Numbered from the stretch's first letter, positions 58,872 to 62,196 are shown. The stretch: DNA of 64,000 nt from Gemmatimonadota bacterium (GCA_034521595.1 JAXHMG010000003.1:1536001-1600000); one strand, 5' to 3'. Notes: generated from the sequence alone by a model not told the origin. Translations and numbers: made by a program.

Positions 58872-58995
58872 GGTCGTCGTCACCCGAATCACCCGTTCTC
58901 TCGTGGATCGGGCGCCACCATAACTCCGGTGCTTCACCCCTCGCAATTCGGAGGCCTTTCCACGCCACGACCGGAATCGACCCGCGCGGGCCCGA

Positions 58996-59703
58996 TCACC
59001 GCAAGGACGACGAGCCCGCGGTCGAGTGCGACGCGCGACGCACGTTGTAGCGGTATCCGACCCAGATGAGCACCAAGCCGACGAGCTCGGTCATGTAGAG
59101 CACCTCCGTGGCGCCCATGCGAGCCGCCGTTCCCCCGATCCCCGGCAGGACCGCGCCCATCGCGATGTAGACGTTGCCGAGGAAGCGGTGACGCAGGCCC
59201 GGATCTCCGCGGTACCGAAGCGCTGAAACCACGGCCCCTCCCGCCAGCAGGACGAGGGCGTAGGTGTTGATGAACGGGCTGAACATGCGGGCCTCGGGCC
59301 AGGCGAGCGCGGCCCCCGTCAGTCCGTACGGCTCCACGGCCGCGAGATCGATCGGCGAGCGGATCACGACAGTCGCGGCGACCGCCACCAGGAGGCCGAG
59401 CGCGGCCGTCAGCCCATGCGCCACCCGCCGCTGGAGCATGAGGTAGGCGGTCCCTTGAGCCAGCGGCGCGGCACCGAGCAACGCCCCGCTCACATACCAA
59501 GCGCGGAAGACCGGCTCGCTCCAGCCGAACAACGTCGTCACCGACTCGGTCAGGGTGCCGAATCCGTAGCACACCACCCCGATCCCCCACCAGAAGAGAT
59601 GCGGTGCCGGACGCTTGCGGCTCCAGCGACCGAGAACCGCGGGCGCGAACCCGGCCGCGACGAGCGTCGTCGCGAGAGGCAGGTAGTGGATGAGTTCGGA
59701 CAC
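58996..59703 (-). CDS. Hypothetical integral membrane protein (about 6-7 TM)
   Basis: Hydrophobic helices; WWGIG..YG, FRAWYVSGA, LAQGTAYL. Confidence 0.75.
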   Translation of the reverse strand: MSELIHYLPLATTLVAAGFAPAVLGRWSRKRPAPHLFWWGIGVVCYGFGTLTESVTTLFGWSEPVFRAWYVSGALLGAAPLAQGTAYLMLQRRVAHGLTAALGLLVAVAATVVIRSPIDLAAVEPYGLTGAALAWPEARMFSPFINTYALVLLAGGAVVSALRYRGDPGLRHRFLGNVYIAMGAVLPGIGGTAARMGATEVLYMTELVGLVLIWVGYRYNVRRASHSTAGSSSLR

Positions 59704-59784
59704 GGGCAGGCGGCGATCTCGGAAAGGGATGGGCGCAACGTACGGAACGCCCCCACCCTCGCCAAGCGTGAGCTCCACCGGGGA

Positions 59785-59833
59785 AGAACGACGAAGCCCC
59801 GGAGGCCGCAAAGCCTTCCGGGGCGTTCGTTCT
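59785..59833 (-). terminator. Hairpin downstream of tRNA-Asn (probable terminator)
   Basis: Minus strand GAACGAACGCCCCGGAAGGC-TTTGCG-GCCTCCGGGGCTTCGTCGTTCTT; weak U-tract. Confidence 0.6.
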
Positions 59834-59838
59834 CTTCA

Positions 59839-59911
59839 CTGGGGCGGCAGGGTTCGAACCTGCAACCTCCTGGTTAACAGCCAGGCGCTCTGCCGATTGA
59901 GCTACACCCCA
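59839..59911 (-). tRNA. tRNA-Asn(GTT), CCA not encoded
   Basis: TGGGGTGTAGCTCAATCGGCAGAGCGCCTGGCTGTTAACCAGGAGGTTGCAGGTTCGAACCCTGCCGCCCCAG: cloverleaf, anticodon GTT, U1-A72, G73. Confidence 0.96.
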
Positions 59912-59974
59912 TCGGCTGGAGGAGGGTCACACCGCAGACCCCCGCCGTACGGCGCTCCCCCACCAACCCTACGC

Positions 59975-60010
59975 AAAACGGCCGCGATCCCGGTCGGGGA
60001 TCGCGGCCGT
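59975..60010 (-). terminator. Attenuator terminator between the Asn leader and tRNA-Asn
   Basis: 14-bp perfect stem ACGGCCGCGATCCC/GGGATCGCGGCCGT, 5-nt loop, then TTTGCG. Confidence 0.8.
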
Positions 60011-60032
60011 CTCGTCCTTCCGAGTCGTTCGG

Positions 60033-60110
60033 CTACGCGATCCCGCGGTCGCAGTCCCGATTGGGATTACGATTCGGATTGGGATTCGAGTTGCCGCGCG
60101 AGATCGTCAT
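60033..60110 (-). CDS. Asn-rich leader peptide MTISRGNSNPNPNRNPNRDCDRGIA
   Basis: 25 sense codons; 6 Asn in codons 7-17 (AAC, then 5x AAT); 3' end complementary to the 5' arm of the terminator. Confidence 0.8.
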   Translation of the reverse strand: MTISRGNSNPNPNRNPNRDCDRGIA

Positions 60111-60228
60111 GTACCAACCTTCACAAGATACGGGCGATCCGTCAACCGGTCAGCTCACCGTGCGCACCCGCACTTGGTCCTGCCCCGTTCTTCTGGAACG
60201 ATTCCGTTCTTGGTGTTACACTCGATTC

Positions 60229-60687
60229 ATGAACGAGTTTGCGGAGGACCTTCGAGCGGCACTCCGGGAGGCGGGCCTTCGGGTCACGGCCCAACGTCTC
60301 GCCATCTTGGGCGTGCTCCGAGACACACCCGGTCATTTGTCCGTCGACCGGGTGACCGAGCAAGTGCGGTCGCGGCTGGGCACGGTATCCCAGCAGGCCG
60401 TCTACGACGCGCTCGGGGTGCTCTCGGGTCTCGGCCTCGCTCGCCGCATCGAGCCCGCGGGGAGCCCCGCGCTCTTCGAGGCCCGCACCGGTGACAACCA
60501 TCACCACGTGGTGTGCCGGCGATGCGGTGCGGTCGAGGACATCGACTGCGCGGTCGGGACCGCCCCCTGCCTCGAAGCCTCCGAGACGCACGGATTCCAG
60601 TTGGATGAGGCGGAAATCACCTTCTGGGGCCTCTGCCCCGGCTGTCAGATGCCTCCCGACCGAGCCGTCGCCCCCACCCCGGGTTGA
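60229..60687 (+). CDS. Fur-family peroxide-responsive regulator (FurA/CatR/PerR-like)
   Basis: GLRVTAQRLAIL, SQQAVYDAL, DNHHHVVCRRC, GLCPGC; upstream of catalase. Extended -10 TGtTACACT lies 6 nt before the ATG. Confidence 0.9.
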   Translation: MNEFAEDLRAALREAGLRVTAQRLAILGVLRDTPGHLSVDRVTEQVRSRLGTVSQQAVYDALGVLSGLGLARRIEPAGSPALFEARTGDNHHHVVCRRCGAVEDIDCAVGTAPCLEASETHGFQLDEAEITFWGLCPGCQMPPDRAVAPTPG

Positions 60688-60735
60688 ACTCGATTCGACC
60701 ATCTCGCGCAGTTACCGACAGGGAGGATGTCAGAC

Positions 60736-62196
60736 ATGGCCAAGGACGACGAAAAGCCGAAAAACACGACCACCGATGCGGGGATCCCCGTATCGAGCGA
60801 CGAGCATTCGCTCACGGTGGGACCCGATGGCCCGATTCTGCTCCACGACCACTACCTCATCGAGCAGATGGCCAACTTCAACCGGGAGCGCATCCCGGAA
60901 CGCCAGCCGCACGCCAAAGGCGCGGGCGCGTTCGGACATTTCGAGGTCACGCAGGACGTGAGCGCCTACACCAAGGCGGCCGTCTTTCAACCCGGGACGA
61001 AGACGGACACCGTGATCCGGTTCTCGTCGGTGGCCGGTGAGCGCGGAAGCCCCGACACCTGGCGGGATCCTCGAGGCTTCGCCCTCAAGTTCTACACCTC
61101 CGAGGGCAACTTCGACATGGTCGGCAACAACACGCCGGTCTTCTTCGTTCGCGATCCGCTCAAGTTCCAGCACTTCATCCGGTCGCAGAAGCGCCGCGCG
61201 GACAGCGGCCTCCGCGATCACGACATGCAGTGGGACTTCTGGACGCTGTCACCGGAATCCGCACATCAGGTCGCCTGGCTCATGGGCGACCGGGGCATCC
61301 CGAAGACGTGGCGGCACATGAACGGCTATTCGAGCCACACGTACATGTGGGTCAATGCCGACGGCGATCGCTTCTGGGTCAAGTATCACTTCAAGACCGA
61401 CCAGGGCATCGACTTCCTCACCCAGGAAGAAGCCGACCGCATCGCGGGCGAAGACGGGGACTACCACCGGCGCGACCTTTTCGAGGCCATCGAGGCGGGG
61501 AACCATCCGAGTTGGACGCTCAAGGTTCAGATCATGCCGTTCGAGGAGGCCAAGACCTACCGATTCAACCCGTTCGATCTGACCAAGGTGTGGCCGCACG
61601 CGGACTACCCGCTGCACGAGGTCGGCAGGCTGACCCTGAATCGCAACCCGACCGACTTCCACACCGAGATCGAGCAGGCGGCCTTCGAGCCGAACAACCT
61701 GGTGCCCGGCACCGGCATCAGCCCGGACAAGATGCTCTTGGGCCGGGTCTTCTCTTACGCGGACGCCCACCGCGCGCGGATGGGCGTCAACTACAAGCAG
61801 ATCCCCGTCAACAAGCCCAAATGTCCCGTACACAACTACAGCAAGGACGGGACGATGCGCGTGGAGAAAGTTTCGGATCCGGTCTACGCCCCGAACTCGA
61901 AGGGGGGGCCAGCCGCCGATCCCGACAAGCATCCCGAAATGGCGACGTGGTACGCAGACGGTGAGTTCGTGCGTGCCGCGTACACGCTTCGCGAAGACGA
62001 CGACGATTGGGGTCAGGCGGGCACGTTGGTCCGCGAGGTGATGGACGACGACGCCAGGGCACGGCTGGTCTCGAACGTGGTCGGTCACCTCTCGGACGGG
62101 GTGTCCGAGCCCGTGCTCGAGCGGGCGGTCCAGTATTGGCGGAACATCGACCAGGACGTGGGAGACCGCATCGCCAAGGGCGTGGGCAAGGGTTGA
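60736..62196 (+). CDS. katA: Monofunctional heme catalase (small subunit)
   Basis: [51 protein letters not shown]. Confidence 0.95.

Follow-up and report, generated by a model that had tools for sequence, protein, structure and literature searches.

Leader-peptide attenuation is the textbook coupling of amino acid supply to the expression of enzyme genes. Its classical examples are the attenuators of the enterobacterial amino acid operons, trpL, hisL, leuL, pheL, thrL, and ilvL; the leu leader uses rare codons. In E. coli, a leader peptide, PheM, also precedes aminoacyl-tRNA synthetase genes (pheM-pheST). T-box riboswitches bind uncharged tRNA directly, without a ribosome. Leaderless leader peptides associated with synthetase genes (leuL-leuS, trpL-trpS, and alaL-alaS) are described for Streptomyces lividans in the available part of one report (PMC8079986), and the available part of another presents leaderless, polycysteine-encoding short open reading frames (ORFs) of mycobacteria as Cys-responsive attenuators (bioRxiv 10.1101/834739).

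In the 64,000-nucleotide stretch of Gemmatimonadota DNA analyzed here (the window), the same device appears to gate a tRNA. We put at roughly 0.75 the probability that a ribosome-mediated attenuator at this locus senses the decoding of Asn codons and sets transcription of a second tRNA-Asn gene. With the classical attenuators, the locus shares a short ORF rich in the codons that would be sensed, four regions able to form 1:2, 2:3, and 3:4 helices, a stop codon in or next to region 2, and a predicted intrinsic terminator before the regulated gene, and with the leu leader it shares the use of rare codons. It differs in its output, which is a tRNA gene rather than enzymes, in the amino acid that would be sensed (Asn), in the arrangement of the codons, which alternate instead of forming a run, and in an mRNA that looks leaderless. 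As in T-box regulation, the charging state of one tRNA species would feed back on genes that decode the same amino acid; however, the reading-frame features of the Asn leader point to translation, and the T-box model (specifier loop plus T-box sequence) found no match in 59300..60700 at E values up to 10. The synthetase leaders (pheM-pheST and those of S. lividans) likewise control a component of the decoding machinery for the amino acid concerned, and the S. lividans leaders are leaderless in the available part of that report (PMC8079986), as is predicted for the Asn leader. Their outputs are protein genes, whereas that of the Asn leader is a tRNA, so that the sensor would read its own product class. 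The mycobacterial ORFs, as far as the available text describes them, also control downstream expression through a leaderless short ORF with codons for one amino acid, but they belong to another phylum, use another amino acid, and have protein-coding operons as output.

A full-text literature search that covered few subscription journals and no supplements found neither a leader-peptide attenuator of a tRNA gene nor an Asn leader peptide, which agrees with an earlier note on this DNA that knew of no described attenuator with a tRNA as output. The type of attenuator is known for amino acid genes; a tRNA gene as its output appears to be new. Ribosome speed on a codon would here set the supply of the tRNA that reads that codon, a direct feedback on decoding capacity.

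The elements of the locus, all on the minus strand, are as follows.

60140..60145 (-): -35-like hexamer TTGACG of the putative leader promoter, recognized by its sequence and by the conservation of TTGAY upstream of the ATG
60117..60122 (-): -10-like hexamer GAAGGT, separated by 17 nt from the -35 hexamer and by 6 nt from the ATG
60033..60110 (-): leader ORF of 25 codons plus TAG, encoding MTISRGNSNPNPNRNPNRDCDRGIA, frame conserved in 49 distinct sequences
60060..60092 (-): six alternating Asn codons (AAC, then five AAT), the putative sensing codons
60071..60063 (-): region 1, the 3' half of the Asn run (CGT AAT CCC), pairing with region 2
60030..60058 (-): region 2, with the stop codon inside, partner of region 1 or of the terminator 5' arm
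60058..60048 (-): part of region 2 in the conserved register, GGGACTGCGAC
60044..60030 (-): lineage-specific part of region 2, GGGATCGCG-TA-GCCG
59997..60010 (-): region 3, the terminator 5' arm, ACGGCCGCGATCCC
59975..59991 (-): region 4, the terminator 3' arm, GGGATCGCGGCCGT, followed by TTTT
59914..59968 (-): long spacer hairpin between terminator and tRNA, restricted to the genus
59839..59911 (-): tRNA-Asn(GTT), the "type A" isodecoder and putative regulated gene (Rfam tRNA, 72.4 bits)
59784..59830 (-): post-tRNA hairpin, its tail poor in U, where the transcription unit likely ends (terminator-like site at 59816..59794)

The main parts of this layout are as the earlier note had described them. 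The ATG at 60110 opens an Asn-rich ORF on the minus strand, with its six Asn at codons 7, 9, 11, 13, 15, and 17. The 14-bp GC hairpin with a short U-tract at 60010-59975 is present as ACGGCCGCGATCCC-CGACC-GGGATCGCGGCCGT (60010..59978; -30.2 kcal/mol), with TTTT running to 59975, and the distance from the U-tract to the tRNA, given as about 64 nt, is 63 nt. The fold of the 219-nt leader beats all 200 shuffled sequences (z, -4.37). An Rfam cmscan of 59300..60700 with E values up to 10 returned only the tRNA and chance-level matches; in the same interval and at the same threshold, the Rfam leader families (Trp, His, Thr, Leu, and Leu/Phe) gave no match.

Related leaders were collected in several ways. 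BLAST against 40 relatives located the leader in the window's genus and in a single further genus, with the Asn codons of the ORF kept and other codons changed. Of 151 genomes of the family searched with a covariance model built on 6 sequences, 16 contained full-length matches; these 16 represent 7 genera, and every one of them carries an Asn-rich ORF of 22 to 25 codons with alternating Asn; the 11 weaker family matches examined were bare hairpins without a tRNA. A second model (R2) was used for wider samples. In the order-level sample (151 genomes from three families, 50 genomes per family), the window's genome gave the only true match, and none of the 27 loci with weak matches had a tRNA; in the phylum-level sample (151 genomes, 12 families), only the window's genome matched at an E value of ≤1e-7. 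Among the genomes searched, the element is confined to part of one family. The leader-bearing contigs are labeled Longimicrobiales, Gemmatimonadales, or Gemmatimonadota. Metagenomes were searched with a pattern of three alternating Asn codons plus both hairpin arms that did not require a tRNA, and this search gave 43 loci. The 16 family genomes and 43 metagenome contigs together provide 49 distinct sequences encoding 41 distinct peptides; 43 of the 60 alignment rows were chosen by the metagenome pattern, in which three Asn codons and the two terminator arms are fixed. A terminator-only scan of genome contigs (at least 120 stretches) yielded 4 useful loci, 3 of them from contigs already in the set. 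That scan was dominated by a GC hairpin of the form GGCCGYGRYYC...GRRYCGCGRYCRTTT that is shared by dozens of Collinsella genomes (L090-L209, among the matches listed), at one match for each contig retrieved.

Conservation of the Asn-rich ORF, on which the earlier note had made its proposal depend, extends through all 49 distinct sequences. The ORF is 22 to 25 codons long in each, ends in TAG (46 sequences) or TAA (3 sequences), and stops 25 to 30 nt upstream of the GGCCGYG core of the 5' arm without exception. The 41 peptides have 3 to 8 Asn each, in an N-x-N-x-N run that begins at codon 6 to 11; 14 different residues occupy the x positions, and the peptide varies freely outside the Asn positions. 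Asn makes up 20.2% of leader residues versus 2.07% of codons genome-wide (852 long ORFs), and arithmetic from the latter figure puts the chance of three alternating Asn in a 25-codon frame at about 2 in 10,000. The leader ORF of the window, with 6 Asn codons in 25, is enriched in the codons that would be sensed. AAT and AAC occur at 171:63 in the leaders, and AAT fills 5 of the 6 Asn positions in the window; genome-wide, AAT accounts for 12.5% of Asn codons (852 long ORFs). Because the Asn codons lie within paired regions, part of their conservation and of the AAT preference may stem from RNA structure.

Of 43 distinct upstream sequences, 42 have TTGAY 35 to 38 nt ahead of the ATG, at a distance of 35 nt in 32 sequences, 36 nt in 9, and 38 nt in 1. 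At the -10 position, A2 and T6 are each present in 42/42 sequences and A4 is present in 34/42; the GAAGGT of the window matches TATAAT at 2 of 6 positions, and relatives carry GATAAT or GAGAAT. The ATG follows the -10 hexamer by 6 to 7 nt in 41 of the 43 upstream sequences and by 10 nt in one more. This geometry places the predicted transcription start on or next to the AUG, so the leader mRNA looks leaderless, with its 5' end at, or one base from, the start codon, and no room would be left for a Shine-Dalgarno sequence. We know of no demonstration of leaderless translation in this phylum.

These observations bear on a very unlikely alternative, in which the leader is a structured RNA that works independently of translation, as a pre-tRNA processing or stability element or as a switch to which a protein or, through the AAU/AAC triplets of the leader, uncharged tRNA-Asn would bind, and the frame is a by-product. 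The missing Shine-Dalgarno sequence is in keeping with it, as are the Asn codons lying in helices, where pairing alone would constrain them. However, a leader of this kind would not account for an ATG held at a nearly fixed distance from the -10 hexamer or for an in-frame stop held 25 to 30 nt before the 5' arm in 49/49 sequences. Length changes within the ORF are of whole codons, while the distance from stop to arm shifts by single bases, and AAT and AAC interchange with each other while the remaining codons change the amino acid encoded. The T-box and other Rfam families, moreover, gave no match to the leader at E values up to 10.

The tRNA gene is the only conserved neighbor of the leader. 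Complete tRNA-Asn(gtt) genes lie downstream in 15 of the 16 family genomes, and the contig of the sixteenth ends inside the tRNA. Among the 43 metagenome loci, a complete tRNA-Asn(gtt) lies 6 to 76 nt downstream in 40, one has a tRNA-Asn with a replaced 3' end, and two are cut by the end of the contig. Wherever a locus reaches far enough downstream, tRNA-Asn follows the hairpin (56/56 loci; complete in 55), and the flanking genes differ among loci. The tRNA is always type A, with 19 variants in the metagenome loci that are identical to the window's tRNA at 65 to 72 of 73 bases. In the locus with the replaced end (L241, about 76 to 142 nt past the hairpin), tRNA-Asn is intact for 66 nt, after which unrelated sequence replaces the 3' acceptor strand; this could reflect an element integrated at the 3' end of the tRNA or an assembly chimera.

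The spacing of the two parts is informative as well. The tRNA begins 6 to 14 nt after the 3' arm in 8 of 40 metagenome copies and about 13 nt after the hairpin in one genome contig (L155), which leaves no room for a promoter, so the tRNA in these loci must arise by read-through. Spacers elsewhere are longer (28 to 92 nt; 63 nt in the window) and could hide a second promoter. A shared GATACT-like motif, CCGATACT, lies about 13 nt before the tRNA in ten loci (G064, G115, L211, L214, L219, L230, L236, L243, L245, and L251) and 37 nt before it in the spacer of G096, and it may serve a secondary promoter as a weak -10 hexamer. The earlier note had seen no separate promoter in the gap of the window. 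A simple sigma-70 scan of 59300..60700, spacer included, agrees in that it found 0 promoter-like sites, but it bears out the claim only in part, since it also missed the weak -10 of the leader. In the window, the spacer itself is largely taken up by a hairpin (59914..59968; -36.4 kcal/mol) that adjoins the tRNA, has no U-run after it, and may act in processing, pausing, or stability. Its stability ranges from -31.6 to -36.4 kcal/mol in five genomes of the window's genus, with compensatory changes, and is -22.4 kcal/mol in a related contig (L212); the other leader-bearing lineages examined lack this long spacer hairpin.

On these data, it is highly improbable that the short ORF and the terminator after it form a separate gene for a small peptide, in which the Asn residues serve the peptide and tRNA-Asn is transcribed separately. 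The ORF with its promoter and terminator would make a complete unit, and the 63 nt between U-run and tRNA in the window and the GATACT-like motif in the spacer of some lineages would suit a separate tRNA promoter. Against this stand the constant tRNA-Asn after the hairpin amid differing flanking genes, the eight metagenome loci in which the tRNA follows within 6 to 14 nt, and a peptide that is free to vary outside the Asn positions while its nucleotides keep three alternative helices. That ORF, Asn codons, stop position, terminator, and tRNA travel together in the 49 sequences fits an attenuator with tRNA-Asn as output.

The alternative helices were then compared across the alignment. In the consensus fold, helix 1:2 joins the Asn run to the 3' part of the ORF, and the terminator (3:4) forms; the full-length minimum-energy fold of the window leader consists of the same two structures. 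Over the 49 distinct sequences, 85.2% of cells are paired in 1:2 plus terminator versus 35 to 45% with slid partners, and 22 pairs are changed on both sides, a result reached by 0/500 shuffles, in an alignment that was fitted to this structure and leans toward it. The two helices of region 1:2 (columns 20-31:67-77 and 36-49:54-66) reach 82.3% and 79.5% paired cells, and two-sided changes occur at 9 of their pairs in the alignment fitted to the structure. Region 1 thus defined contains or adjoins the putative sensing codons. The earlier note had instead taken codons 2 to 5 (CGATCTCGCG) as region 1, pairing with CGCGGGATCG. This pairing is possible in the window, but codons 2 to 5 are not conserved, and we rejected the assignment because the minimum-energy and consensus folds pair the Asn run itself.

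The terminator helix, regions 3:4 in the earlier note as here, is paired in 92.6% of cells in the 49 sequences and has 7 pairs with changes on both sides. Stems of 12 to 18 pairs (13 to 18 base pairs; -21 to -36.5 kcal/mol), each with a T-rich run after it, occur in 16/16 genomes, which places a predicted intrinsic terminator between ORF and tRNA. We defined the antiterminator as columns 54-64 paired with columns 114-124 of the 5' arm, plus a short helix that closes the stop-codon hairpin; it combines the 5' arm with a segment that a ribosome at the stop codon could cover. Columns 54-64:114-124 pair in 90.4% of cells, and the whole antiterminator is paired in 89.8% of cells versus 40 to 50% when slid (49 distinct sequences), with a covariation score that was reached by 0/500 shuffles. 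In the 16 distinct genome-derived sequences, which stand outside the pattern selection, pairing is 87.2% for the antiterminator, 82.3% for 1:2, and 94.4% for the terminator, and 30 to 56% with the partners slid.

Regions 1/2/3/4 share one register (CGCAATCCC / GGGATCGCG / CGCGATCCC / GGGATCGCG), and the letters of the four regions at one position change together (TATA in 22, TGCG in 6, CGTA in 5, and CGCG in 1). The window forms its antiterminator with a lineage-specific copy of region 2 (-26.9 kcal/mol; z, -3.46). Pairing of GGGATCGCG-TA-GCCG with the 5' arm, as the earlier note had it, is real in the window, where 13 of 14 arm bases are paired, but in relatives the partner lies further upstream, in columns 54-64. 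Antiterminator energies are below those of shuffled sequences (z, -1.2 to -3.5); the count of 5'-arm bases paired upstream is not above that of shuffles in most sequences. The least probable of the alternatives weighed, a constitutive leaky terminator or pause site that gives low, fixed tRNA expression with inconsequential alternative pairings, can draw on a terminator more stable than the antiterminator in the window (-30.2 versus -26.9 kcal/mol) and on short U-runs (UUUU in the window, CUUC- or CUCUUC-like in some relatives) but leaves unexplained the conserved Asn codons, the fixed stop position, and the single register, with its two-sided changes, that regions 1 to 4 have in common. All three alternative helices (1:2, 2:3, and 3:4) are kept with compensatory changes, and this fits an attenuator. 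Every sequence-level feature of an attenuator that was looked for is apparently present, and the comparative data, computational throughout, support the earlier note's proposal of an attenuator with tRNA-Asn as its output.

From the anatomy, the conservation, the linkage to tRNA, and the alternative pairings, which the computation establishes, we infer the following course of transcription start, ORF translation, stalling, termination, and response to Asn. Transcription from the promoter would begin at the AUG of the 25-codon ORF or one base away from it. When Asn-tRNA(Asn) is plentiful, the ribosome would run to the TAG inside region 2 and cover that region; region 3 would then pair with region 4, and RNA polymerase would stop at the U-run before the tRNA. 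When Asn-tRNA(Asn) is scarce, the ribosome would stall on the alternating, mostly rare AAU codons and hold region 1 open, leaving region 2 available to region 3. The resulting 2:3 pairing would block the terminator, and polymerase would read on into the tRNA, giving a pre-tRNA with a long 5' leader that RNase P would cut off. In the absence of translation, regions 1 and 2 would pair and the terminator would form. The capacity to decode Asn would in this way feed back negatively on how much of an inducible tRNA-Asn isodecoder is supplied, while the housekeeping tRNA-Asn encoded elsewhere in the genome would be made from its own promoter. Since the element is small, its predictions are clear, and 49 natural variants are at hand, the idea is directly testable.

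Two tRNA-Asn(GTT) genes, with only about 75% identity to each other, are present in the genome. The "type B" gene lies outside the window (G000:C3:2934111-2934184, locus L262); it has no leader, is preceded by a strong promoter-like site (TTGACA ... TATTAG), and is 97 to 100% conserved in five other leader-bearing genomes. Type A is also found without the leader in other genera. Given the second, promoter-bearing copy, the putative attenuator would govern an extra, inducible isodecoder and not the sole tRNA-Asn, and bacteria could thus keep an inducible isodecoder beside a constitutive one. ARAGORN lists 49 tRNAs in the genome, including a tRNA-SeC(tca).

The genome also encodes asnS (463 bits) and gatB (536 bits), and no asnA or asnB was found over threshold in the genome (93% complete). 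With AsnRS and GatB present and no AsnA or AsnB found, Asn may be made only by conversion of Asp-tRNA(Asn) to Asn-tRNA(Asn), and the element bears on how organisms lacking asparagine synthetase handle Asn. It is possible, though doubtful, that the regulated isodecoder is an inducible scaffold for tRNA-dependent Asn synthesis; if so, the attenuator would in effect be that of an "asn operon," with the tRNA as the biosynthetic gene that is switched on. In the 151-genome family sample, genomes without an AsnB-family gene (E value of ≤1e-30) number 10 among the 16 with the leader and 39 among the 135 others; related genomes are not independent in this comparison, and some members of the AsnB family are paralogues that serve other roles. 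The remaining six genomes with the leader do encode an AsnB-family homologue, and the link between leader presence and a missing AsnB is suggestive only.

Public RNA data touch the locus lightly. Each of 13 runs contained at most 0.11 of the sampled words of the stretch, and in the RNA contigs from four runs, coverage falls mostly on the tRNA. In relatives, two short RNA-library contigs link a hairpin and the tRNA; DNA may be their source, and they do not demonstrate a single transcript.

Downstream of the tRNA, a 301-codon ORF (58934-59839, minus strand) matches no Pfam family and may be miscalled or novel. Upstream, on the other strand, lie genes for a Fur-family regulator (60232-60687, plus strand; PF01475, 80.9 bits) and a catalase (60727-62196, plus strand; PF00199, 626.6 bits), so that no minus-strand gene feeds into the leader-tRNA unit. 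The 86-nt gap between the Fur/catalase genes and the -35 hexamer of the leader contains a near-palindrome, GGAACGATTCC, and a repeated AGAACGG (at about 60165-60200), which may form an operator of the Fur-family regulator.
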